Source of the DNA: an uncultured Bacteroidales bacterium
Lineage (GTDB): Bacteria > Bacteroidota > Bacteroidia > Bacteroidales > UBA3663
NCBI GenBank assembly: GCA_937899265.1
Contig: CALBPV010000036.1
Span: forward strand, 2,184-66,183
DNA length: 64,000 bases
Direction of reading: 5' to 3'
Both the position numbers and the translations under genes were made by a program. How positions within the stretch are numbered: the stretch's first letter is position 1; every line of letters begins with the position of its first letter. Positions 5,812 through 26,846 of the stretch are shown here, in pieces. The notes beneath the pieces were generated by a model. That model had not been told where the DNA came from and did no database searches. It saw only the letters and a program-made list of their open reading frames with translations.

Positions 5812-6378
5812 TCACACTTCGTTTTTGTGGAAATAGGCTGCCACTTTTTCTGCTGCGAAATGATAGCTGGCCTTGAGGGCTCCCACCGAAGTATTGAGAA
5901 TGGCCGAGATTTCCTCGTATGGCATGTCGTCGAAATACCTCATATTGAAGACCTGTCTCTGCTTGGCGGGCAGCGTAGCTATCGCCTTGAGCAGTGTTCG
6001 CTGGGTCTCGTCTCCGTCGAAATATTTGTCGGCCTGGAGCTGGTCCATCAGGAATCCTTCGGGGTCGCTTTGGGTCATCTCCTGCTCGGCCTGTCTCTTC
6101 TGGAGGAAGGTGATGGATTCGTTGTGGGCAATGGAGTAGAGCCACGTTGAGATTTTGGCTTCTCCCCGGAAATTGTCGAGATTGGTCCAGGCCTTGAGGA
6201 AGGTATTCTGCAAGACATCGGCCGTATCGTCGTGGGAGATGAGGAGTTTCCTTATCTGCCAATAAAGTTGTTCCTGATAAATGCCCACCATCTCTGTGAA
6301 GGCGGCTCGGCGCGTGTCGGGATTTATCAGTCTGGCTGTCAGCCGGGCCTCTTCCGATGGATTGAGTGTTTTGGACAT
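5812..6378 (-). CDS. RNA polymerase ECF-type sigma-70 factor
   Basis: 188 aa. Region 2 (DDTADVLQNTFLKAW...FRGEAKISTWLYSIAHNE) and region 4 (LPAKQRQVFNMRYFDDMPYEEISAILNTSVGALKASY) are readable. Confidence 0.9.
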   Translation of the reverse strand: MSKTLNPSEEARLTARLINPDTRRAAFTEMVGIYQEQLYWQIRKLLISHDDTADVLQNTFLKAWTNLDNFRGEAKISTWLYSIAHNESITFLQKRQAEQEMTQSDPEGFLMDQLQADKYFDGDETQRTLLKAIATLPAKQRQVFNMRYFDDMPYEEISAILNTSVGALKASYHFAAEKVAAYFHKNEV

Positions 6379-6429
6379 GTTGTTCGTTTTGCTTAACTTG
6401 TTTTTTGGACGATGGTTCTGTTGAAAAGT

Positions 6430-9342
6430 TTAAAATTCACGAGGGTTCCGTTGGCAGAGTTCTGTAAACGGACAGAAAGTACAATGTTTGATGTCGGCCT
6501 GAACGAAGGGCACTGCGGGGTCATAGAGTTCGTTGACCATCAGGCGGAACTCTTCCTCGAAGCCGTCCATTTGGGTGCGCAGTTCTCTCAACTGACCCTC
6601 CTCTCCCGTCAATGCCGTCGAGACATCGGGGTCGGTAAAGCGGCGCACATGGTAGAGATGTCCTTCCAGCCTATAGTCCTGCAAATGGATTTGAGGCCCT
6701 AAAATGGCTTGGGAAGGAAACTTCAGCAGCATCATTCCGTAGAGCATCACCTGGAAGGCTTCGTCCGAGGCTGCGAGTTTCAGTTTGTTCTTGGGATTGG
6801 ACGTTTTGTAATCGACGATTCTCAGAGCTCCGCGACACACATCGATGCGATCGTAGATTCCCTTGAGATTCACTTTCAGGTGGGGCGATACCTCATAGGT
6901 GAACCGTTCGCTTTTTTCCAATGCGACGATTCTCAGAGGCGAGAGTTTGGCATCGTGTTTCAGGGTATTCTTCACATACGTCACGATGATGTCGGCCACC
7001 AACTGGTGATAACCTGTCAGATCCGTCACCCCGATTTCCTTTCGGAATTGGTCGCACACCATATTATATATATAGGGTTCGTTGGCGAGTATTTTTTTTA
7101 ACACGTCGCTCTGCACCTCCTTCCCTATGAAGGGACGGTACAGCTGCTCCATCACACCGTGATAGATATTGCCGAACACGTTGCTGGCCATTTCCTCCTT
7201 CACGGTCTCTTCTTCGCGAAGGTCTTTGATGTAACTGAAGTAGAATTCCAACGTGCAGTTGCGATAGATTTTAAATGCCGTAGCCGAGAAATGCTTGTCT
7301 CCTCCCATGCGATATCTGTCCAACAGGGCTCTCACCTCGGGTGATTTCTCTATCTCTATGGGATCCACATTCACCACACCGGGCTCGTATTGTACAAAAT
7401 GCGTATGGCTGTCCAAATCGATGTGATAGAGATAGCGCAGCTGCTTCAGGTAACGGGACTCCTCGCCCGACAACAATCCTTCGGAACGCGAGTCGTAAAT
7501 CAGCGTCACCTGTTTGGCACGTGAAAGAAGTCGGTAGAAATGGTAGGCAAAGACGGCATCCTTGTGTTGCTGGGTGGGCAAGTGGAACGCGTGGCGTAGC
7601 GACATCGGGATGAACGTGTTGACCGACGTTTTGGCCGGAAATACGCCTTCGTTCATCGAAAGCAAAATCACGCGGTCGAAGTCCAGACCTCGTGTCTCCA
7701 ACACACCCATCAGCTGCAATCCGCTCAGAGGTTCGCCCGAGAAGGGCACGGAGAGTCCGCGTGTGAGTTGCTGGACGAGGCGGAAGAATGTCTGCACGTT
7801 AAAGGTCCAATCCACTCCCCCGATGAGGTCTGCCAGTTTTTCGACCACATCGATGTATGCCTTCAGAAATTCGCGGTCGAAGACGGTGAAGCGTTCCTCT
7901 TCCTTGTCGTCTATCACACAATGGGTCAGATATTTGAAAATTTTCAGCAGATAAACGACAGCTTCCCCAACGGTCTCCACCGGCTGGAATATCAGACTCA
8001 GCCAACTGTCGTGGGTCAACATTTTTTGGGGCACGATGTAGCGGTTCTGCCGGTTGATTTCGTGGGTCAGCTCCAGCGCCGGGTCGCCTGTGATACTGAG
8101 TGTGAAATGATGGGTAAGCAAGGGGAGTACGCTCTTGTAGAAGAACGAGGCCTCTCCCTCGCTTGTCCGCTGTGTCTGCTGGAGACCGGCGAGGTGATCG
8201 ACAAACGCCGACACCGCTGTTCCTTTGAGGCTGTAACCCATCGTGATGTTGTAGGACGGGATTTCGGGAGGCAGGGCATAGACCATCGGCAGCATGAGAT
8301 TTTCTGCCGGCAAAACCACCGCTGTGCGGAACGCTTCTTCCGGGGTTTCGATATGCCAGTCTTTGAGCTGACGGGCGGCCACTTGTGCCTGTCCCACGCC
8401 CGAGGGAACCACATAGACATTGAACTCCCTGTCCGAGTCTGGCACAAGACTTCCCTGCCTTTCTTCTTCGGGAATGGCATCGGGGAAATCCTGCAGGTTC
8501 CTCCGTGTGAAAAAGGCTCCCTGCGACTTCATTTCGCCGTCGTGCAGTCGGGGGTCGTCATAGTCCCAACAGAACTCGGCCACGCCTTCCTTTTGGAGCC
8601 AGCGCATCAGGGCACGTTCGGTCTCGGTGATGGCAGTCAGTCCCACGAAAACTATCTTCTCCGTGTGGAGCAGCTGACGAGGGTCGCCGCTGTTCCAGAT
8701 ACCGCGTTCGCCGTTGCAGTATTCTTCTATCACTTCCCGCTCCAACATTCCCTCATAGGCCAGACCGTCTCGACGCAATTCCTCGCGAAAGGTTTTGTAG
8801 AGGTCGTAGAGAATGCTCCACGTCTCCTCAAACACCTGCTTCTTTCTCTCCTCGCTCAACTGGGCCACGCTCTTCCAGAACCTTTCCACCACAGCCCGTT
8901 CTTCATCGGTCATTGTGCCGTAGCGCAGGTCGATTTCTTTGAGGTCGCGGATGTTGGTGAACAAGCGGCGGGCATCCGTCAAGTATTCGTCCACATCGTT
9001 GAAATCGCCCAACAGTATGTCGCCCCAGAAGACGAAACTGTCAAACGACTCTCCGCTCTTCGACAGTTTCCGGTAGAGGGTGTAGAGACGGAACAGAAGC
9101 TCCGTACGATCCAGTACTCTTAGGTCGGAGAATTGGGTGAAAATGTCGGCAATGGTCGTGGTGCGCGGTGCGAAAACCGGCGCTGTCACAGACTGCGTCA
9201 AATAGTGTTCCATGAAGAGTCCGCTTCTTCGGTTGGGGAACACGAAAAGGTGCGAGGCCAAATGAACGGCTCGCCGGGCGGGTGTCATGCCTTCACTCTG
9301 TCGCAAATAATGTTCTGCAACGATTCTGAGGAACTCTTTCAT
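6430..9342 (-). CDS. PD-(D/E)XK nuclease family protein, AddB-like
   Basis: About 970 aa from ATG (complement 9340-9342; MKEFLRIVAEHYL). The C-terminal end has RIDVCRGALRIVDYKTS (nuclease core) and a Cys cluster ...HCTFCPFTELC, as in AddB/RecB-family nuclease domains. Confidence 0.7.
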   Translation of the reverse strand: MKEFLRIVAEHYLRQSEGMTPARRAVHLASHLFVFPNRRSGLFMEHYLTQSVTAPVFAPRTTTIADIFTQFSDLRVLDRTELLFRLYTLYRKLSKSGESFDSFVFWGDILLGDFNDVDEYLTDARRLFTNIRDLKEIDLRYGTMTDEERAVVERFWKSVAQLSEERKKQVFEETWSILYDLYKTFREELRRDGLAYEGMLEREVIEEYCNGERGIWNSGDPRQLLHTEKIVFVGLTAITETERALMRWLQKEGVAEFCWDYDDPRLHDGEMKSQGAFFTRRNLQDFPDAIPEEERQGSLVPDSDREFNVYVVPSGVGQAQVAARQLKDWHIETPEEAFRTAVVLPAENLMLPMVYALPPEIPSYNITMGYSLKGTAVSAFVDHLAGLQQTQRTSEGEASFFYKSVLPLLTHHFTLSITGDPALELTHEINRQNRYIVPQKMLTHDSWLSLIFQPVETVGEAVVYLLKIFKYLTHCVIDDKEEERFTVFDREFLKAYIDVVEKLADLIGGVDWTFNVQTFFRLVQQLTRGLSVPFSGEPLSGLQLMGVLETRGLDFDRVILLSMNEGVFPAKTSVNTFIPMSLRHAFHLPTQQHKDAVFAYHFYRLLSRAKQVTLIYDSRSEGLLSGEESRYLKQLRYLYHIDLDSHTHFVQYEPGVVNVDPIEIEKSPEVRALLDRYRMGGDKHFSATAFKIYRNCTLEFYFSYIKDLREEETVKEEMASNVFGNIYHGVMEQLYRPFIGKEVQSDVLKKILANEPYIYNMVCDQFRKEIGVTDLTGYHQLVADIIVTYVKNTLKHDAKLSPLRIVALEKSERFTYEVSPHLKVNLKGIYDRIDVCRGALRIVDYKTSNPKNKLKLAASDEAFQVMLYGMMLLKFPSQAILGPQIHLQDYRLEGHLYHVRRFTDPDVSTALTGEEGQLRELRTQMDGFEEEFRLMVNELYDPAVPFVQADIKHCTFCPFTELCQRNPREF

Positions 9343-9499: not shown

Positions 9500-10534
9500 A
9501 TGACTCTCAATTTCACACCCCATCCGCTTCGGTTGAAGCATACATTCACAGTAGCCGGCTCTTCGCGGACCGAAACTCCCGATGTGCTCGTCACCGTCTC
9601 CTGCGACGGACTTACCGGTTACGGCGAAGCTTCTATGCCTCCTTACCTCGGGGAGTCTGTCGAAAGCGTTGTTGCATTTCTCTCGCGCATCGATCTCTCG
9701 GGATATGAAGACCCTTTTGCGCTGGCAGAGATTCATGCCTATCTCGACACACTTTCTCCCGGAGACTGGGCTGCAAAGGCGGCTGTCGATATTGCGCTCC
9801 ACGACCTTCAGGGGAAGCTCACTGGACTGCCTCTTTGGCGTCTTTGGGGACTTCCTCCGCTTCCCGGGGGTGAACAGGGACTCCCCACGACCTTCACCAT
9901 CGGCATCGATACGCCCGAGACGGTACGTGCCAAGACACTCGAAGTCGCTGGCCGCTTCCGCAGGCTCAAAGTGAAAGTGGGCGTTCCCGGCGACCGCGAA
10001 CTCATCGCCTCCATACGCTCGGTGACCGACACTCCCCTCACCGTCGATGCCAATCAGGGATGGACATCCCGCGAGGAAGCTCTCGACCGCATTTTTTGGC
10101 TCCGCGAACAGGGTGTTGTCATGATAGAACAGCCGCTGCCCAAGACCCGGCTCGATGACCTCGCCTGGCTCACCGAACGTTCTCCCCTGCCCGTCATTGC
10201 CGATGAGAGTTGCCAACATCTCTCCGACCTCAAACGTCTCCAAGGCTGTGTCTCCGGCATCAACATCAAACTCATGAAGTGCGGAGGTCTCTGGGAAGCC
10301 CGCCAAATGGCTGTCACGGCACGTGCCCTCGGCCTGCAGGTCATGTTGGGCTGTATGACAGAAACTGCCTGTGCCGTCTCTGCCATCGCCCATCTTGCTC
10401 CAATCGCCGATTGGGCCGACCTCGATGGCAACCTGCTCATCTCCAACGACCCTTTCACGGGCGGCCTTCAGGTCATCGACGGCAACATAGTCCTGCCTTC
10501 AGCTCCCGGCATCGGCGTTCAACGCTCCTTTTGA
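9500..10534 (+). CDS. Dipeptide epimerase (L-Ala-D/L-Glu epimerase type, enolase superfamily)
   Basis: Enolase-superfamily catalytic pattern: RLKVKVG (KxK), VDANQGW, MIEQP, IADES and NIKLMKCGG. Start taken at MTLNFTPHPLRLKHTF. Confidence 0.8.
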   Translation: MTLNFTPHPLRLKHTFTVAGSSRTETPDVLVTVSCDGLTGYGEASMPPYLGESVESVVAFLSRIDLSGYEDPFALAEIHAYLDTLSPGDWAAKAAVDIALHDLQGKLTGLPLWRLWGLPPLPGGEQGLPTTFTIGIDTPETVRAKTLEVAGRFRRLKVKVGVPGDRELIASIRSVTDTPLTVDANQGWTSREEALDRIFWLREQGVVMIEQPLPKTRLDDLAWLTERSPLPVIADESCQHLSDLKRLQGCVSGINIKLMKCGGLWEARQMAVTARALGLQVMLGCMTETACAVSAIAHLAPIADWADLDGNLLISNDPFTGGLQVIDGNIVLPSAPGIGVQRSF

Positions 10535-10573: not shown

Positions 10574-11425
10574 ATGGAAAAATTGACTGGTTTTTTCTCG
10601 CCCGAAATGCTCGCCATGTTTGAGCAGTGGGCTATCACTTTCTGTAAGAATGTGGTCGTTGCCATCATCGTCTTCGTGATTGGCAAGTATCTCATCAAAT
10701 GGGTCACCAAACTCTTCGGCAAGGTGCTCGAAAAGCGCAACACCGATCCCGGTGTGGAGAGTTTTCTCAAGAGTGTGGTCCGCGTGTCGCTTTGGCTTTT
10801 GCTCGCCATCGTGATTATTTCGATTCTCGGCATCGAGACCTCTTCGTTCATTGCACTCTTTGCCTCTGCAGGCATGGCCATCGGCATGGCTCTCAGCGGA
10901 ACGCTCCAGAACTTCGCGGGCGGAGTGATGATTCTGCTCTTCAAACCCTTCCGTGTGGGTGACTACATCGAAGCCCAAGGCTTCCAGGGAACCGTTCGTG
11001 AGATTCAGATTTTCAACACCATCCTCACCACCGTTGACAATCAGACCATCATCATCCCCAACGGCGGTCTCTCAACGGGAGCAATGAAGAACTATTCCAA
11101 AGAGCCCTACCGTCGTGTTGATCTCAAGTTCCAGTTTTGCTACGGAACTGACTTCGACAAGGTGCGCGACAACATTGCTGCGCTCCAGAAGGCTACTCCC
11201 GAAATCTTGCAGCAGCCCATCGAGGGCACCCCTGTGGCTGCACCCTGGATTGGTCTCATCTCGCTCGACGAAAGCGGCGTGAGCGTTCAGACCCGCCAGT
11301 GGGTCAAGGCTGCCGACTATTGGACGGTTTATTTCGGTTTCAACGAGACCGTTTACCAACAGCTCAAAGACAAGGGATTCATGTTCCCCTTCTCCCGTGT
11401 CGATGTCACAATGCTCAATAAGTAA
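10574..11425 (+). CDS. Mechanosensitive ion channel (MscS family)
   Basis: 283 aa with N-terminal TM helices. The conserved core reads ALSGTLQNFAGGVMILLFKPFRVGDYIE...GTVREIQIFNTILTTVDNQTIIIPNG. Confidence 0.85.
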   Translation: MEKLTGFFSPEMLAMFEQWAITFCKNVVVAIIVFVIGKYLIKWVTKLFGKVLEKRNTDPGVESFLKSVVRVSLWLLLAIVIISILGIETSSFIALFASAGMAIGMALSGTLQNFAGGVMILLFKPFRVGDYIEAQGFQGTVREIQIFNTILTTVDNQTIIIPNGGLSTGAMKNYSKEPYRRVDLKFQFCYGTDFDKVRDNIAALQKATPEILQQPIEGTPVAAPWIGLISLDESGVSVQTRQWVKAADYWTVYFGFNETVYQQLKDKGFMFPFSRVDVTMLNK

Positions 11426-11447
11426 TCCCAACGTACTTCAATCGAGC

Positions 11448-11495
11448 AGGAGGTAAACACCACTACTCACAGGTGTTTACCTCCTTCTTTCATTT
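11448..11495 (+). terminator. Rho-independent terminator after the MscS gene
   Basis: 14-bp perfect stem aggaggtaaacacc / ggtgtttacctcct (11448-11461 and 11472-11485) followed by tcttt. Confidence 0.7.
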
Positions 11496-11620
11496 TTGCC
11501 GATTTCTCACACCACCGCACGTGCCGTTCGGCATACAGCTTTTGCGGCGGCACTTTTTATCCAAATGTTTTCAGGGCCTCAGTTGCATATACCGTCCGCA
11601 CCGACAAATAAATTTGCAGC

Positions 11621-15618: not shown

Positions 15619-15627
15619 CTACATCTG

Positions 15628-15698
15628 TTGCCCTACCGGGACTCGAACCCAGTCAAGCAGAACCAAAATCTGATGTGCTACCATTACACCATAGGGCA
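15628..15698 (-). tRNA. tRNA-Gln (anticodon TTG)
   Basis: Minus strand: TGCCCTATGGTGTAATGGTAGCACATCAGATTTTGGTTCTGCTTGACTGGGTTCGAGTCCCGGTAGGGCAA. The acceptor stem is TGCCCTA/TAGGGCA. The anticodon stem CAGA/TCTG carries the loop TTTTGGT. The T-arm is GGTTCGAGTCC. No CCA is encoded. Confidence 0.9.
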
Positions 15699-21591: not shown

Positions 21592-22014
21592 CCGGCAAAA
21601 TCCTGTGTTCGAAAACAGTTTGATTTAGGGGGCGTTACCGTCCGTTTGGGTCCATCGATAATCGATGGCGGCTTAAAAAACTTTTTGCGAGTCCATCGTC
21701 CGACGATAGAGGCTCGGAAAACTTTTTGCGGATCCATCGATAATCGATGGCGGCTCAAAAAACTTTTTGCAGGTCCATCGTCCGACGATAGAGGCTCGGA
21801 AAACTTTTTGCGGGTCTATCGATATCCGATGGCGGCTTAAAAAACTTTTCGCGGGTCTATCGATATCCGATGGCGGCTCAAAAAACTTTTTGCAGGTCCA
21901 TCGGAGTCCGATAGGGTCGTCAACGCCCCTTTTGGGTTCATCCGATTCGGTTGGATTCAAAACGGGTCGTTGATGCCCCCAATCAAACTATTTTCGAACA
22001 CAGGGTTTTGCCGG
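21592..22014. repeat. 423-bp non-coding element bounded by imperfect terminal inverted repeats of about 40 bp (MITE-like)
   Basis: Left arm, 21592-21632: ccggcaaaatcctgtgttcgaaaacagtttgatttaggggg. Reverse complement of the right arm, 21976-22014: ccggcaaaaccctgtgttcgaaaatagtttgattggggg. They differ by 2 mismatches and a 2-nt indel. Confidence 0.6.
21651..21915. repeat. Tandem array of six exact-period 41-bp units plus a partial seventh, each with an internal palindrome
   Basis: Units start at 21651, 21692, 21733, 21774, 21815, 21856 and 21897. Type A reads tccatcgataatcgatggcggctYaaaaaactttttgc; type B reads tccatcgtccgacgatagaggctcggaaaactttttgc. The order is A B A B A' A'. Confidence 0.9.
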
Positions 22015-22182
22015 TGAGCGATTGTTACGCGAAGTTCGGGAATCGTGACTCGTGACTCGTGAAATTATCCTGGACAAGCACTCCACCGGCGTCGGGGCGG
22101 GTCTATATGGTCATGAGAAACAGGACGCACAGCTCTATTTCCGCGACAGGAGCTTGACCTCTTCAGAGCGCTGCAATGTGGG

Positions 22183-22485
22183 TTATAGTCTGCCCTCTTT
22201 CAGGACTTTATATCTCCGCTGAAGGGCCACCAAGACACTTCTTTCGGCCATGGGATTGAGCCCTCTGAATGTCGTGTGCTGTTTGAGTTCATCCAACGAC
22301 ATCTCCATGAGAAGTTTTGCAATGCACTCATCGGCGAAGGAGTTGGATACAACATTGACACCTGTAAAGTCAAGAACGACTTTCTCACCTCCATGGATTA
22401 ACAGCAGCAGTTTTTCGCGAAGTTTCCGCCCCATCTCCCGTGTGCCGAAATCTGTTCCATATTCTATAAACCTGAATTCTACCAT
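22183..22485 (-). CDS. STAS-like domain protein (DUF4325-type)
   Basis: 100 aa: MVEFRFIEYGTDFGTREMGRKLREKLLLLIHGGEKVVLDFTGVNVVSNSFADECIAKLL... The VVLDFxGV..xSxSF pattern is as in SpoIIAA/RsbV-like STAS folds. Its ATG overlaps the stop of the upstream GHKL gene by 7 nt. Confidence 0.65.
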   Translation of the reverse strand: MVEFRFIEYGTDFGTREMGRKLREKLLLLIHGGEKVVLDFTGVNVVSNSFADECIAKLLMEMSLDELKQHTTFRGLNPMAERSVLVALQRRYKVLKEGRL

Positions 22486-23129
22486 AATGATTCCAATTCT
22501 TCTGTTTCTACAAATGTTTCATTATATTCACATACGGCATCGGTCCGATGATCAACCACTTGATTGGCATCTATTTCCTTGCCCGTACTGATTTCCATAT
22601 AGATGAGAGTTCCTTGCCAAAAACCGTTTTCCCAAACGTCAGTCTTGCCATCCTTGATGATTAATTTGTGACTACCTGAATGCAGAATAAAACGTTTGCC
22701 TATATCATTGACAAGCCTTGCTGTAGTATATAACCCGAAGCCCATACCCTTTCCGTCGGTTATGGCATCTTGCAGACATAGACGAAGGGCATCTGCTTCA
22801 GTTATGTCCCTGTATTGGACGTTTTCGCTCAGTGACTTTCGGATACCCTTCCCGTCGTCTGCTATCAGTATTCGCAGTGTGGACTCCTCCCTGTCGTAAC
22901 AGGTAATTGCCGTCCCCAAAGGCTTGCCCGAATGAATGTGCACATTGTCCATTATCTCATAGAGGCAATAACTGAGTGCTTGCAACACGCTGACTTCTAT
23001 CTCAAAATGAGAGGTCATCGCATTGACAACGTTTTTATATACTGTATTCAATGTCTGGGCATCAAACACATCTATCGAAGGATTGGCAGCTCCTTTGAAA
23101 TATCTGTCTAAGAGGAATGCTATATCCAT
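22479..23129 (-). CDS. GHKL-superfamily ATPase, RsbW/SpoIIAB-like (histidine-kinase-like ATPase domain only)
   Basis: N-box EIMDNVHIHS, G1 LRILIADDGKGI and G2 DGKGMGFGLYTTARL. Start moved from TTG (23171) to ATG MDIAFLL (complement 23127-29), because a -7 box overlaps the TTG. Confidence 0.7.
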   Translation of the reverse strand: MDIAFLLDRYFKGAANPSIDVFDAQTLNTVYKNVVNAMTSHFEIEVSVLQALSYCLYEIMDNVHIHSGKPLGTAITCYDREESTLRILIADDGKGIRKSLSENVQYRDITEADALRLCLQDAITDGKGMGFGLYTTARLVNDIGKRFILHSGSHKLIIKDGKTDVWENGFWQGTLIYMEISTGKEIDANQVVDHRTDAVCEYNETFVETEELESLW

Positions 23130-23168
23130 TAGGCCTTGTTTAATACATTTAAAGAGAATATTCGGCTG

Positions 23169-23176
23169 CAAAGTTA
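23169..23176 (-). promoter_or_regulatory. -7 box (TAACTTTG on minus strand) for the GHKL/STAS pair
   Basis: The plus strand reads caaagtta, about 40 nt upstream of ATG 23129. Confidence 0.45.
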
Positions 23177-23290
23177 CATTTTTTTTTGAAAATACAAAGC
23201 TTCCAAACCGTTAAAAGTAAAAAACTACGGTAAAAGCCCCACCGGTTCAGCACGAAACGTCATCTTTGTCCGCCAAATTTGGAACTAGAA

Positions 23291-24571
23291 TCAGTTTTGG
23301 AGCAACCACTCGAGAGCAGAGCGGATGTGAATGATATGACCGGAGAGAAGCGTCTCGCGAGTCTCCGAGAGTGTTATCAGTGTGAGATTGTCGCATCGGA
23401 GTATGTTGGAGGCTTGTACCAACGCATTTGTTTCCCGGGAGAGAGTTTTGGGCGAGTCGATATCGTATGCCACTTGTACCAACTCTATCGTACGCCCCTG
23501 TTCGCATACGACAAAATCAACCTCCTTGCTACGGCTGGAGGGTTTGTAATAGTAGATGTCGTAGTACAACGGAGCTGCCCTGCGAAGCAATTCGATATAT
23601 ACAATATTCTCCAACCGCCAACCGGCATTCTGTCCGACCAGACTGTCTGTCCTATTGGCTATCAGACCTGTGTCGATGACGTATGCTTTGGAATCTCGCA
23701 AGCGCTCCCGGCTTTTGAATGAGAACTTATGAATTTGCAGAATAAGAAAAGCTTGCATCAGGTAGTTCACATATTTTTTGGTAGTCACCGGGCTTCCGAT
23801 ACCGAACAGTCGGGTCAATTCATCGTAGTTTATTTCCTGACAGTTGTTGTTGATTAGGTGATTGGCAATCAATTGGAGAGCCTCCACATTTCGCAGGTGA
23901 AAGCGTTGACGGATATCTTTGTGGATAATGGTGCCTATCAGCCCTTGCACGTATGCCCTCTTGTTGCGGATGTGCATAAGTTCCGGGAAGCCGCCGTTAA
24001 CCAGGTATTCTGCCCAAGCTGCCTTTACCGCTGCCTTGGCTTTGGTGGTCAGCCCGCGAGTGTCAGTCTTCAGATATGAGCAGTATTCGGCAAAGGAAAA
24101 GGGGAAAAGGCGGATTTCATTGTACCGTCCGGTCAGATGTGAGGAGAACTCGCTACTGAGTAATTTGGCATTTGATCCTGTCACGAAAACATGGAATCCC
24201 GTTCGAAGCAGGCGATTGACAAAAAGATGCCATCCTTCGACGTTCTGTATCTCGTCCAAAAGGATATAGTTGATGTCCTGCCCATACAACTGGTAGATGC
24301 AACTGAGCAGTGTATTGAGATCAGGGGTTTTAAGGTCGAAAAAACGGTCGTCGTCGAGGTTGGCGTAAGCGTACCTGATCTGATGTTGGAGTAGCACTTT
24401 GTGGCAAAGTGTGGACTTGCCAGAGCGGCGCACACCTATAACGACTTGCGCCAAGGGGCTGTCGAACTCGAATAGCTCCTCTTCCATTCGGCGAGTCCAA
24501 CTCGAAAATTTCATTCCGGCTACCTCGTCCTTCTGCTCGGCAAGCACTTCGAGGATGATGTTTTCTGTCAT
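23291..24571 (-). CDS. AAA+ ATPase with C-terminal DUF4143 (COG1373 type)
   Basis: 426 aa with Walker A GVRRSGKST and Walker B YILLDEIQ. The C-terminal end has a restriction-endonuclease-like EVDFVV...ELVQVAYDI segment. Confidence 0.8.
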   Translation of the reverse strand: MTENIILEVLAEQKDEVAGMKFSSWTRRMEEELFEFDSPLAQVVIGVRRSGKSTLCHKVLLQHQIRYAYANLDDDRFFDLKTPDLNTLLSCIYQLYGQDINYILLDEIQNVEGWHLFVNRLLRTGFHVFVTGSNAKLLSSEFSSHLTGRYNEIRLFPFSFAEYCSYLKTDTRGLTTKAKAAVKAAWAEYLVNGGFPELMHIRNKRAYVQGLIGTIIHKDIRQRFHLRNVEALQLIANHLINNNCQEINYDELTRLFGIGSPVTTKKYVNYLMQAFLILQIHKFSFKSRERLRDSKAYVIDTGLIANRTDSLVGQNAGWRLENIVYIELLRRAAPLYYDIYYYKPSSRSKEVDFVVCEQGRTIELVQVAYDIDSPKTLSRETNALVQASNILRCDNLTLITLSETRETLLSGHIIHIRSALEWLLQN

Positions 24572-24856: not shown

Positions 24857-25519
24857 TCAGTCTCTGTTCATCACGCTTTCCGCCAACAAATACACTCGCG
24901 TACCGAGTGTTTGCGGCCAACGGTCAGAAGGATTCTTGTCCAACGTCCTTGCCCGTTTTATCGCGTCTTCCACATGAGTTATCAAAGCCTGTGCATCGTA
25001 GGATGACTCATGATAAGCCCCCATCTTCCGGCGTAACCGCACCTTCAAATATGGGTCGGCATTTTTAGATTTTCGGCGATTCTCCATCCATAGAATCTGT
25101 TCCTCGGGTGTCACTGATGCTGAATCTTCTATATGCAATAATAGCCAAAGTTCGAAACAAGGATTGCTTAATGCCATGTGCATAGCGACTTCCTGTGAAC
25201 ATTCCGTGGCAACACGAGAAAGCATGGCCTCAGTCCAGCGGTCTTTATCTACTACTAACCAGAGTTCGTCGTCTGCCTCTAACTCATATTGGCTTTTGTA
25301 GTCATTGAGCTGTTTCAACACATGTTCAGGACTGGAGTTGTTTTGTTCATCTGCACTACGTTCCAGAATATGTACGTGCACACGGGGATTGGTATATTCT
25401 TTGGCTAATGCCTTGAAATATATCCGCTCCGTGTCTTTGCCCTCGGAGGCTATGACTATGAGGCGAGCGTCACGAAATGCCTCGCGACGTTCACGCATCA
25501 AACTATTCCTGCTTCGCAT
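24857..25519 (-). CDS. RloB-like protein (AbiLii-like)
   Basis: Motifs IVIASEGKDTERIYF, LWLVVDKDRW and ALSNPCFELWLLLH match the RloB family signature. Overlaps the upstream ATPase gene by 17 nt. Confidence 0.85.
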   Translation of the reverse strand: MRSRNSLMRERREAFRDARLIVIASEGKDTERIYFKALAKEYTNPRVHVHILERSADEQNNSSPEHVLKQLNDYKSQYELEADDELWLVVDKDRWTEAMLSRVATECSQEVAMHMALSNPCFELWLLLHIEDSASVTPEEQILWMENRRKSKNADPYLKVRLRRKMGAYHESSYDAQALITHVEDAIKRARTLDKNPSDRWPQTLGTRVYLLAESVMNRD

Positions 25520-26846
25520 TGTCCCAATGAATATTATTCAGTTCACCAAAGAATGGAATTGCTCCATAGCGACCGTTCAGATAACCTTTCTGCACATTCT
25601 CCCTTGGCTTGTACTCACAGAGTGAAGACAAATGGCTTTCTCCTTTCTTGTCTTTCTCCACAAACCATACTTCATCTTGGCGGACAGGGGCTGTAGAAAG
25701 CAAATTTGATTCGTGTGTTGTGCATATTAACTGCATCTGCGAGTCGCTTCTGAGCAAACTGTTGTACAACTCCAATAATTTCAATGTCAACATCGGGTGT
25801 AAGCTCCTGTCAACCTCGTCAATCACATAGACTGCATCATTGGCACGCATATCGATAAGCATTGGAATGAAGTCGAACAAGCGTGACGTTCCATCGGACT
25901 CTTCGAACATTTCGAAGATATAGTCCGAGTTGCTGTCATCCTTCTTGTGGATGGTTTTCAGCTCTTGCCACTTCAGATTCTTCGACTTGTCTTTTTCTGC
26001 AATGATGAAGCGGTTCTCATTGTGAATCACCACCCCGATTTCGGCTCCTTTGCCTTCAAGAGCCTCCTCAACCTTTTGCCGAATATCATCGTGAATGCCC
26101 AATTCTTCAGGTTTTGACTCTACACGACAAAGGTCGGAGATGCCTGTTCCGAAATAATTCAGAAGTTCGCGCATCACGGTTCTGAATTGGGTGTCGTTTA
26201 CAACTCGGAACGGGAAATCTGTTCTGTGTGTATTTGGGAAGATGACATTCAGATTCTCAAACCATTTTCGGGCAGACTTAATCGCATCAATTCCCTTTCC
26301 GTTTCGCTTGATATACTCACTAAGGAAAGTACCCTTGGTAGGAGTACCATCAATCAAGAATTTCAAGAATTGTCCATCCTCATCCTTCATGTACTGTGTA
26401 GCAATTACATTTTCCCAGTTGTCGGCAGAACGCTTGCGCTCAAAAATCATGGTGTCATTACGACTGCCCGTCTTATACAGCCATTCCTCCAGCAAACCGC
26501 CTTTAGAGAAAGCTATACCGTAAGCAAAGAACTGGTTTTCTGCCTTGAACTCCAATTCGATACACGAACGCTCTTGAGGAGCATCCGTCATCTTGAAATA
26601 GTTATATTTTAGATTACTCCAGCCATTCAGGGCAAATTCTTTGACAATAGCCAAACATTTTATGATATTTGACTTTCCGGAAGCATTGGCACCATAAATC
26701 AATCCCATGCGGAGTACGGATAAATCATCCCGTTTCTCCGCACGTGACACTTGCAACGGCAATTGGTCGCTCTTGCTGGCTGTAAACAAGATGCGCGTTT
26801 CCTCGTTAAATGAGTAAATGTTTTCAAATTTGGCTGACAATAACAT
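25503..26846 (-). CDS. AAA_21/ABC-type ATPase (AbiLi/RloA-like)
   Basis: Walker A GANASGKSN, Walker B VYVIDEVDRSLHP and the TTHES motif. Start set to ATG MLLSAKFENIYSF (complement 26844-46), because the longer ORF starts at TTG and contains the -7 box. Confidence 0.85.
   Translation of the reverse strand: MLLSAKFENIYSFNEETRILFTASKSDQLPLQVSRAEKRDDLSVLRMGLIYGANASGKSNIIKCLAIVKEFALNGWSNLKYNYFKMTDAPQERSCIELEFKAENQFFAYGIAFSKGGLLEEWLYKTGSRNDTMIFERKRSADNWENVIATQYMKDEDGQFLKFLIDGTPTKGTFLSEYIKRNGKGIDAIKSARKWFENLNVIFPNTHRTDFPFRVVNDTQFRTVMRELLNYFGTGISDLCRVESKPEELGIHDDIRQKVEEALEGKGAEIGVVIHNENRFIIAEKDKSKNLKWQELKTIHKKDDSNSDYIFEMFEESDGTSRLFDFIPMLIDMRANDAVYVIDEVDRSLHPMLTLKLLELYNSLLRSDSQMQLICTTHESNLLSTAPVRQDEVWFVEKDKKGESHLSSLCEYKPRENVQKGYLNGRYGAIPFFGELNNIHWDNAKQE

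Follow-up and report, generated by a model that had tools for sequence, protein, structure and literature searches.

A minimal GHKL-STAS gene pair of Bacteroidales related to the CapK/CapS and VapK/VapS switches

It was not until 2026 that pairs of a kinase and a STAS protein came to be recognised as controllers of bacterial immunity, and then solely where they come with an obvious output in the form of a repressor domain or a PIN toxin. CapK/CapS and VapKSC are DNA-damage-activated kinase/STAS modules that regulate anti-phage systems or form such systems themselves, as published in 2026 (PMC13373217). CapK is an ssDNA-activated kinase with the domain order HTH-STAS-GHKL; its target CapS is a STAS-wHTH repressor whose gene precedes operons such as those of CBASS, Bub and Thoeris (PMC13373217). 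VapKSC consists of the STAS-GHKL kinase VapK, the STAS antitoxin VapS and the PIN toxin VapC (Chambers et al., EMBO J 2026, PMC13373217). Ser54 of CapS is phosphorylated by CapK, and mutants of VapS Ser48 show the same switch logic in VapKSC (PMC13373217). The N-terminal STAS domain and the GHKL domain of VapK and CapK are proposed to form an ssDNA groove; 36% of the vapKSC loci lie near other immune genes, and 20% of the capKS loci directly follow restriction genes (PMC13373217). DUF4325 genes, for their part, are transcriptionally coupled to PIN.4 VapC-like nucleases, a conflict-type partner (Matelska et al. 2017, PMC5499597).

Here we describe a gene pair, K and S, from an uncultured Bacteroidales bacterium, located in the 64,000-nt stretch of DNA that was analysed (the window). 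The pair is related to the CapK/CapS and VapK/VapS switches but reduced in its domains, and it has no recognisable output part. Despite lacking both a sensor domain and an output domain, it is strongly conserved, occurring either as two coupled genes or as a fused protein.

The K-S gene pair and its transcription unit

The following features, all on the minus strand, make up the locus.

22479..23129, minus: K, a 216-aa putative serine kinase of the GHKL type (SpoIIAB/VapK/CapK-type)
22183..22485, minus: S, a 100-aa bare STAS-like (DUF4325) protein
22479..22485, minus: 7-nt stop/start overlap ATGGTAG, holding the K stop TAG and the S start ATG
23169..23198, minus: Bacteroides-type promoter with TTTG at 23198-23195, an 18-nt spacer and the -7 box TAACTTTG at 23176-23169
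23228..23244, minus: terminator-like hairpin with a T-run behind it, separating the K promoter from the AAA_14 gene upstream
22128..22145, minus: weak terminator-like hairpin about 40 nt past the S stop, from a consensus scan only

The open reading frame of K spans 22479..23171 when counted from a TTG; translation from the ATG at 23129, which is conserved, yields the 216-aa protein. K combines a GHKL domain with a tail that is acidic, disordered and conserved and that ends in ELESLW. The first-pass annotation, made from the sequence alone, had put this C-terminal tail at about 50 aa; it actually comprises about 35 residues, which are of low confidence in the model. The extra N-terminal helical region of K described there extends only about 18 residues past the part that aligns with relatives. 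Its assignment of the two proteins to known domain families is borne out by Pfam: K passes the cut-offs of HATPase_c_2 (28.3 bits, cut-off 27.4) and HATPase_c (28.0 bits, cut-off 26.4), both by a narrow margin, and S that of DUF4325 (53.1 bits, cut-off 23; E 2.6e-14).

All of the motifs that had been quoted for K and S were found, and they are invariant across 48 family members. In K these are the N-box (Y57-E58-IMD-N62-VHIHS), G1 (D91-D92-G93-K-G95) and G2 (G126-K-G-M-G-F-G-L133); in S it is LDFTGVNVVSNSFADE. The invariant stretch V-S47-N48-S49-F-A-D-E of S is sited where helix α2 begins, Ser49 is near-invariant among distant relatives, and the motif LDFxGV..V[ST][NS]SFADE is retained down to about 30% identity. 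A PADLOC scan of K and S gave no system-level match, the best hit of K being mREase_IV (E 0.0096), and S matched a segment of DrmA (E 2e-4); an NCBIfam scan of both proteins gave no equivalog.

The overlap of the K stop with the S start, already noticed in the first reading, is identical in every split-type locus, which suggests translational coupling. Joining of K and S by a programmed frameshift was considered and rejected, there being no slippery heptamer at TCATTATGGTAG; in fused relatives, a linker of about 9 additional residues stands instead at the place where the split loci overlap. The pair also has its own promoter, as previously proposed. It conforms to the established promoter consensus of Bacteroides. 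Its -7 box TAACTTTG lies 40 nt from the ATG of K, and of 77 related loci, 49 have a TAnnTTTG in the 150 nt that precede K, mostly at 25-43 nt from the ATG, compared with 5.7% of random windows. The hairpin at 23228..23244 marks the upstream limit of the K-S transcription unit, whereas the downstream hairpin is weak evidence, the terminator consensus scan having yielded two such sites against 1.0 expected.

The pair had been placed in low-GC DNA between a repeat element and two NTPase modules, and this description stands. The GC content is 0.41-0.47 over 22-27 kb compared with 0.53-0.59 in the flanks. The repeat element is a tandem array of 41/82-nt units (21648-21912) that was found at this site only. 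One of the neighbouring modules is an AAA_14+DUF4143 protein that matches PADLOC PDC-S01 (E 1.5e-98), and the other is an AAA_21/RloB pair resembling AbiL (AbiLi, E 1.3e-78; AbiLii, E 8.9e-22). On the downstream side of S, the window contains the tandem repeat and convergent transporter genes, with no co-oriented gene downstream of S and no PIN ORF after it.

Relation to known kinase/STAS systems

Homology and modelling show K to be a putative GHKL serine kinase of the anti-sigma-factor type that looks active, and S to be a bare STAS-like domain. For the fused form of K-S, the predicted structure is of moderate quality (pLDDT 71.6, pTM 0.54), and the best real structural match of its K part in Foldseek is SpoIIAB (TMt 0.62-0.66). 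The N-domains of Hsp90 and Grp94 also rank high by Foldseek E-value with this model, but their TM of 0.2-0.3 and rmsd of 12-16 Å led us to reject them. S was modelled confidently by AlphaFold2 (pLDDT 94.4), with helix α2 running from residue 48, and its top Foldseek match is the STAS protein RsbS (probability 0.97, E 0.036, TM about 0.5). Macrodomains reach a TM similar to that of the STAS matches, which we read as generic three-layer α/β similarity; a macrodomain reading of S was dropped because the Pfam and VapS sequence evidence favour STAS. The kinase/STAS architecture proposed for the pair at the outset is thus upheld by both models.

Sequence comparisons place the pair next to the systems described above. 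A one-step family profile scores 76 bits with VapK, 35 bits with CapK, 30 bits with VapS and 7.5 bits with SpoIIAB, and a search of 1.8 billion proteins recovered VapK-like proteins among the relatives at E ≤ 1e-19. The direct similarity of K to VapK and CapK is weak (8-11 bits), the link being made via intermediates, and a single-sequence PDB search with K returned no GHKL chain and spurious matches only. An hhalign comparison of the K family with CapK is significant over the stretch from the N-box to G1 (E 1.6e-4); the corresponding comparison with CapS is not, and no S-CapS match was detectable. For S, the sole significant sequence match in the PDB is VapS (9z7o), with an E-value of 0.008 when S alone is the query and 2.9e-4 with a profile. 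A locus search from a VapS fragment gave no confirmed relative in species-representative genomes. The pair can therefore not be called wholly undescribed, as the first-pass annotation had suggested, since it belongs to the lineage of CapK/CapS and VapK/VapS, published in 2026 (PMC13373217).

The likeness to VapKSC extends to the gene order, in which the kinase gene precedes the STAS gene, to the LDF...S..F signature that VapS and S share at the start of helix α2, and to the nature of the locus as a small mobile cassette. [quoted passage not shown] Moreover, Ser48, the proven acceptor of VapS, aligns with Asn48 of S, which is not a serine. With CapK, the GHKL domain of K shares the pattern E-[IL]-[IL]-x-N-V-x-x-H-S-x-x-P-[IL]-x-G. 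Ser54 in the 'DSSF' of CapS occupies the position of Ser49 in the 'SNSF' of S, and some pairs of the broader family lie right behind restriction genes, as do capKS loci. Unlike CapK and CapS, K is without HTH and STAS domains and S without a wHTH, and no immune operon follows K-S, the downstream gene not being conserved across loci. S is also a clear DUF4325 member, as in the DUF4325/PIN.4 pairs, but its partner is a GHKL kinase and no PIN domain is involved.

Distribution and genomic contexts

The genes for K and S occur in over 1,400 protein clusters and in 257 species representatives or more, far beyond what chance would give. The cassette is conserved at 62-83% identity in hundreds of Bacteroidales species from gut and rumen. 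In approximately 25 of 80 sampled species loci (about a third), K and S form a single protein of about 317 aa, which provides a Rosetta-stone argument for a direct interaction between them. Degraded copies lack S and the tail of K together and do not leave orphan antitoxins.

The distribution is patchy and the locations are variable, with sometimes two copies in one genome. DNA similarity between loci ends at the start codon of K and near the stop codon of S. A mobile-element cassette with conserved ends was accordingly rejected, as the similarity is restricted to the coding region and the 41/82-nt repeat is unique to the present site. A third conserved gene was sought among 79 close loci and 46 distant ones without success; comM, AAA_14 and genes for giant surface proteins recur in subsets of loci only. 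Many copies follow surface-protein, PUL, capsule, comM or rodA operons. Of 74 loci, 60 have the upstream gene in the same orientation as K-S; some copies lie inside operons. Relatives are also found on Bacteroides phage BF1-TP2 (gp43/gp42), on small plasmids of Acinetobacter and Phaeobacter and, in five Flavobacteriaceae, immediately after GmrSD+HsdR. In close outgroup relatives, N-terminal HTH_3 or IF2_N-type domains are fused to K-S (P0247, 40% identity).

The pair had been presented as part of a defence island. This is true of the window, where the AbiL-like pair and the PDC-S01 protein stand alongside it, and is not family-wide, since no neighbour is conserved. In several loci, K-S is beside toxin-antitoxin, restriction-modification or Abi genes. 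Adjacent genes match 137 PADLOC families compared with 25 in a distant control. At least 20 of 129 adjacent genes (at least 16%) encode defence-like proteins against about 9 of 129 (7%), a difference of about twofold or more that is approximate, the scan giving family counts and not per-protein hits. K-S neighbourhoods are mostly not defence loci, and the defence enrichment is modest.

Proposed function and alternative readings

We propose, at somewhat better than even confidence, that K-S acts on its own as a phospho-switch of two components, within the CapK/VapK-CapS/VapS lineage. By analogy with CapS, VapS and SpoIIAA, K would bind S and, with ATP, phosphorylate it on Ser49 (possibly Ser47) at the N-terminus of helix α2. 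Phosphorylation would then alter the choice of S among its binding partners, which may be K, a second S or a protein encoded elsewhere. The occurrence of a single K-linker-S polypeptide in many species means that the reaction can take place in cis. As the pair has no ssDNA-sensing STAS or HTH domain, no DNA-binding domain and no toxin, its trigger and its output must lie within K and S themselves or be supplied in trans. Its likeliest role, which is the weakest step of the proposal, may be that of a small accessory cassette which sits in variable regions of Bacteroidales genomes and switches in response to stress or infection; with no output domain and no conserved partner, this functional end of the model is conjecture. 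The pair poses a testable question as to the target of phosphorylated or unphosphorylated S, or of K. It would also extend the thin catalogue of conflict and stress systems of the Bacteroidales, an important group of gut and rumen bacteria.

An alternative is a classical partner switch of the RsbW/RsbV or SpoIIAB/SpoIIAA type, in which K would hold an unlinked sigma factor and S would free it in a transcriptional stress or housekeeping response unrelated to phages. K-S resembles these systems in its kinase fold, its STAS-like partner, the serine at the N-terminus of helix α2 and the adjacency of the genes. SpoIIAB is the best solved-structure match of K, S resembles RsbS/RsbV, relatives are labelled 'anti-sigma regulatory factor' by JGI, and one distant plasmid relative adjoins a sigma-factor-like HTH gene. 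We nevertheless consider this reading unlikely. In agreement with the first-pass annotation, no sigma factor and no PP2C/SpoIIE phosphatase is present among the neighbours in the window or recurs among the 129 immediate neighbours. The gene order is kinase first, and by sequence the pair groups with VapK, CapK and VapS (76, 35 and 30 bits) and not with SpoIIAB (7.5 bits), K being far closer to VapK and CapK. The accessory, patchy, variable and sometimes doubled occurrence of K-S, with relatives on phages and plasmids, speaks against it as well. An ordinary regulator with an unlinked partner would be of modest interest. Transcriptional control of neighbouring genes in the manner of CapKS, which would concern defence genes here and surface-protein, PUL or capsule operons elsewhere, appears very unlikely. 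CapK/CapS do regulate adjacent operons, and the HTH_3 and IF2_N-type fusions of the outgroup relatives, the co-oriented upstream gene in most loci and the copies within operons are all consistent with such a function. However, neither K nor S has a DNA-binding domain, the window has no co-oriented gene downstream and neighbours are not conserved, and the terminator-like hairpin and the promoter of its own set the pair apart from the ATPase gene upstream.

A toxin-antitoxin or abortive pair is likewise improbable in our estimation. Here K would serve as effector by burning ATP or by phosphorylating proteins of the host or the phage, and S, or the STAS part of the fusion, would be a pseudo-substrate inhibitor that is released upon infection. 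A coupled two-gene cassette that has a promoter of its own and lacks any further conserved component would fit this idea, as would the toxin-antitoxin, restriction-modification and Abi neighbours of several loci and the occurrence on small plasmids, and VapKSC sets the precedent of a kinase/STAS pair gating a toxin. On the other hand, single-chain forms of K-S are common, which is unusual for toxin-antitoxin pairs, and when copies decay, S is lost along with the K tail and no orphan antitoxin stays behind. To our knowledge, STAS partners are the sole phosphorylation targets of SpoIIAB-type kinases, which also counts against K as an effector. It is conceivable, though doubtful, that K-S, as two genes or as the fused 317-aa protein, is a complete, self-sufficient immune or stress module, in which K is the effector or phosphorylated S signals to a host target and the trigger is sensed without an ssDNA-binding STAS domain. 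If K-S works alone, it would represent the minimal core of this switch family, and the self-sufficient module would amount to a new, minimal kind of defence built on a kinase, which many Bacteroidales of gut and rumen, and some of their phages, would carry.

Organization and setting of the K-S cassette

The small GHKL ATPase and putative serine kinase (K) and the STAS-like DUF4325 protein (S) are encoded by two genes in which the stop codon of K and the start codon of S overlap within a 7-nt ATGGTAG. The features of the cassette and its surroundings are:

23129..22479, minus strand: K, 216 aa from the conserved ATG at 23129 (230 aa if the TTG at 23171 is used)
22485..22183, minus strand: S, a 100-aa ORF
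23176-23169, minus strand: Bacteroides-type promoter of K, box TAACTTTG, preceded by TTTG and an 18-nt spacer, 40 nt upstream of the ATG
23244-23228, minus strand: hairpin and then T-run, between K and the upstream gene
23291-24571, minus strand: AAA_14+DUF4143 ATPase directly upstream of K (PADLOC candidate PDC-S01, E 1.5e-98)
24857-25498, minus strand: AbiLii, RloB-like protein (E 8.9e-22)
25503-26846, minus strand: AbiLi, AAA_21 ATPase (E 1.3e-78)
21648-21912: 41/82-nt tandem repeat

K matches HATPase_c_2 (28.3 bits, cut-off 27.4) and HATPase_c (28.0 bits, cut-off 26.4) in Pfam, and S matches DUF4325, "STAS-like" (53.1 bits, cut-off 23). The three ATP-binding boxes proposed for K in the first-pass annotation are all there and are invariant in a 48-sequence family alignment (E58/N62, D91-D92-G93-x-G95 and G126-K-G-M-G-F-G-L133), as is the S motif VVSNSFADEC. 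Of 77 related loci, 49 have TAnnTTTG upstream of K, versus 5.7% of random windows; the cassette's own promoter and the hairpin and T-run upstream of it make K-S look like a separate transcription unit.

The low-GC stretch, repeat element and two NTPase modules described initially were all recovered, with a GC content of 0.41-0.47 over 22-27 kb of the window. The AbiL-like (RloA/RloB-type) pair at 24857-26846 opens this low-GC islet, after a Na+/alanine symporter gene. The sole tRNA gene of the window, tRNA-Gln (anticodon TTG; 15627-15698, minus strand), is ~6 kb from the islet and shows no obvious connection with it. From 33128 down to 21625 the window shares 99.6% identity with a public contig (GCA_900089705.1, FLNY01004988.1), and the two part completely inside the 41/82-nt repeat (window 21625-21912; public contig 11225-11497), which has 6.5 copies whose units bear ATCGAT-type palindromes. 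Past the repeat lie dnaX in the public contig and ABC-transporter genes in the window; the break at the repeat marks either a rearrangement between strains or a chimeric assembly. No further copy of the repeat is present in the rest of the window or among the 80 related loci.

Relationship to CapK/CapS and VapKSC

The pair was initially put forward as an undescribed module; however, a GHKL kinase with a STAS protein linked to immunity is a known kind of system (PMC13373217). Once activated by ssDNA, CapK (HTH-STAS-GHKL) phosphorylates the repressor CapS (STAS-wHTH) at Ser54, upon which downstream immune operons are de-repressed (Chambers et al., EMBO J 2026, PMC13373217). For VapKSC, the proposal is that phosphorylation of VapS (STAS plus a tail) by VapK (STAS-GHKL) frees the PIN toxin VapC, and the system gave E. 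coli protection from one phage (PMC13373217); an older survey had described a PIN subgroup coupled to DUF4325 genes (PMC5499597).

VapS (9z7o) is the only significant PDB sequence match of S (E 0.008 with the single sequence, 2.9e-4 with the family profile). An exhaustive search of 1.8 billion representatives gave 1,712 relatives, among which are ~310-aa proteins consisting of a ~110-aa N-terminal domain and GHKL, and ~400-420-aa proteins that add DUF4325 to this arrangement. One related protein, P0247, is an HTH_3-GHKL-DUF4325 protein with 40% identity to the fused query across K and S; further relatives carry an IF2_N domain before GHKL-DUF4325. The VapK, VapS, CapK and CapS sequences were taken from the source files of PMC13373217. 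VapK matches many of the 1,712 relatives with up to 66 bits, and a profile of the family plus those relatives scores 76 bits for VapK, 35 for CapK and 30 for VapS. By hhalign the close family matches CapK over the N-box to G1 stretch (E 1.6e-4), with the common string E-[IL]-[IL]-x-N-V-x-x-H-S-x-x-P-[IL]-x-G. These scores place K among GHKL kinases of the CapK/VapK branch and S in the VapS/DUF4325 branch; since direct K-VapK similarity is weak (8-11 bits), this placement rests on the intermediates.

The predicted structure of S from the window (pLDDT 94.4, pTM 0.84) has the order beta-alpha-beta-beta-alpha-alpha-beta-alpha. Foldseek ranks the STAS protein RsbS highest for it (probability 0.97, E 0.036), ahead of further stressosome and RsbV chains and of macrodomains, a ranking that supports a divergent STAS-like fold. 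The model of a fused homologue, P0121 (pLDDT 71.6, pTM 0.54), is confident for the GHKL core and the STAS part, with an acidic tail and linker (residues 194-210) that is disordered.

The motif LDFxGV..V-[ST]-[NS]-S-F-A-D-E is kept in relatives down to ~30% identity, position 49 being Ser in 49 of ~53 sequences and position 47 Ser or Thr. Helix alpha2 starts at residue 48 in the model of S, which makes Ser47 the N-cap and puts Ser49 in the first turn. Ser54 of CapS, in "DSSF", directly precedes the conserved Phe as Ser49 of S does. The proven Ser48 of VapS aligns to Asn48, between the two serines of S. Ser49 is the better candidate phospho-acceptor, with Ser47 as the alternative.

Distribution, fused forms and genomic neighborhoods

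More than 1,400 protein clusters related to K are present in the protein collection, most of them unnamed or labelled "anti-sigma regulatory factor" or "ATP-binding protein", and relatives are encoded in at least 257 species-representative genomes. Almost all carriers are Bacteroidales from rumen, horse or gut (Prevotella, Bacteroidaceae, Paludibacteraceae, Rikenellaceae and Muribaculaceae). Among the 80 loci fetched, all split forms keep the identical 7-nt ATGGTAG overlap, which implies a single ancient fission (or fusion) that spread afterwards. The DNA similarity between loci starts at the K start codon and stops near the S stop codon, so the unit is the two coding regions alone. About 25 of the 80 loci (L042, L044-L059, L061-L064, L066, L071 and L080; match near position 10001 in most) encode K and S as one 316-327-aa polypeptide containing a ~9-residue linker. 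This form is abundant under the NCBI name "STAS-like domain-containing protein", and the fusion argues strongly for a direct action of K and S on one another. Programmed frameshifting from K into S was dismissed, the slippery site being absent. Decayed or deleted variants also exist (L073 10001-10672, L079 3273-3923, L060, L077 and L078); in some, internal deletions fuse the K core to the last S helix (216-223 aa), and others lack S, with similarity ending near residue 196 of K.

Clustering of 1,207 crude ORFs from the fetched loci into 882 clusters revealed no conserved partner gene, K and S alone being common to all loci. Recurrent settings are behind PULs and amid clusters of giant surface-type proteins of 1,200-4,000 aa; another is after mreBCD-PBP2-rodA, beside an islet whose content varies by strain, with a PIN toxin-antitoxin pair in one and HpaII+HNH in another. 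Several Prevotella lineages have giant same-strand ORFs on both sides of K-S, separated from it by 24-56 nt (L096-L099, where K is at 6001-6651, and L016, L027, L033, L043 and L073), some of these ORFs having Fn3_assoc/CHB_HEX_C_1/M26 domains and some no Pfam match.

ComM/Mg-chelatase is the commonest Pfam family among the 129 immediately adjacent proteins (8, every one upstream of fused copies), followed by AAA_14 with or without DUF4143 (6); UDP-glucose dehydrogenase, Fic, outer-membrane beta-barrels, BspA-type LRR proteins, glycosyltransferases and AbiEi are also frequent. The comM/yifB gene (Mg-chelatase-like) lies directly upstream of, and co-oriented with, fused K-S in ~8 species (L045, L048-L050, L052, L062 and L080), and a 169-aa fragment from that cluster is present in L071; one insertion site inherited from a common ancestor, or a hotspot behind comM, could explain this adjacency. 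The AAA_14+DUF4143 family adjoins K-S in ~7 of 79 other species in varying orientation, versus 1 of 129 distant control genes, which suggests island co-residence rather than an operon.

The defence-island setting claimed for the pair holds in the window and does not extend to the family as a whole, in which defence-like genes are moderately enriched beside K-S and a defence context is not the rule. Against a size-matched control gene set >5.5 kb from K-S, 137 versus 25 PADLOC families were matched at E <= 1e-10, and at least 20 of 129 adjacent proteins versus ~9 of 129 control proteins fell in listed PADLOC families (Fisher p ~0.05). The pairs are not mostly beside sigma factors or in a conserved core neighborhood, a distribution that the first-pass annotation would have taken as refuting it, but strong defence-gene enrichment is not shown either. 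Given the varied settings, the cassette resides in variable regions.

Proposed function and wider family

K-S is a real and conserved kinase/STAS-like pair, apparently with its own transcription, that belongs to the CapK/VapK-CapS/VapS lineage and has a minimal architecture and a location in variable regions. Kinship with CapK/CapS would fit a local transcription controller and kinship with VapKSC a kinase-toxin/antitoxin pair. Unlike CapK, K has neither an HTH nor an N-terminal STAS domain; VapK also has the latter, which forms half of the proposed ssDNA groove in CapK and VapK (PMC13373217). S lacks the wHTH of CapS, stops at the last STAS helix with no counterpart of the VapS tail that inhibits VapC, and is not followed by a PIN gene as in VapKSC. 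The local controller and the toxin/antitoxin pair are less likely rivals. SpoIIAB is the sole real structural match of P0121 in the PDB by Foldseek (TMt 0.62-0.66, rmsd 4.7-6.4 Å, probability 1.0; Hsp90-type hits at TM 0.2-0.3 were discounted). A classical sigma-factor switch of the SpoIIAB/RsbW kind is nevertheless a less likely rival too: the B. subtilis SpoIIAB sequence scores 7.5 bits against the same family-plus-relatives profile, and Pfam found no recurrent sigma-factor or PP2C family among the 129 immediately adjacent proteins.

We propose instead that K would phosphorylate S at Ser49, switching the interactions of S; more conjecturally, the module would sense stress or infection and act via K and S themselves or via an unlinked partner. 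The K-S version is without sensor domain, DNA-binding domain or toxin, shows both fission and fusion of K and S, and is Bacteroidales-specific. No description of this minimal variant was found in the searchable literature, and its missing output is a genuine, testable puzzle.

The wider family is likewise minimal. In 46 distant loci the usual layout is a ~310-aa kinase and then a ~97-aa S, with no conserved PIN or other third gene. In five Flavobacteriaceae (L110, L112, L114, L121 and L105; upstream genes at about 5620) a distant K (320 aa)-S (97 aa) pair lies directly behind a GmrSD-type restriction gene and a type I HsdR gene on the same strand, reminiscent of the linkage to restriction-modification genes that is reported for capKS. 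Mobile elements carry relatives too. The B. fragilis phage BF1-TP2 carries gp43 ("ATP-binding protein", 295 aa) and gp42 ("DUF4325", 119 aa) with a 4-nt overlap (L094 4644-5887), a phage-borne kinase/STAS-like pair without a PIN gene, and a Clostridioides phage carries a relative as well. A 6.8-kb Acinetobacter plasmid bears a relative beside BrnT/BrnA, and further plasmid-borne relatives are found in Phaeobacter, Nostoc and Alicyclobacillus.
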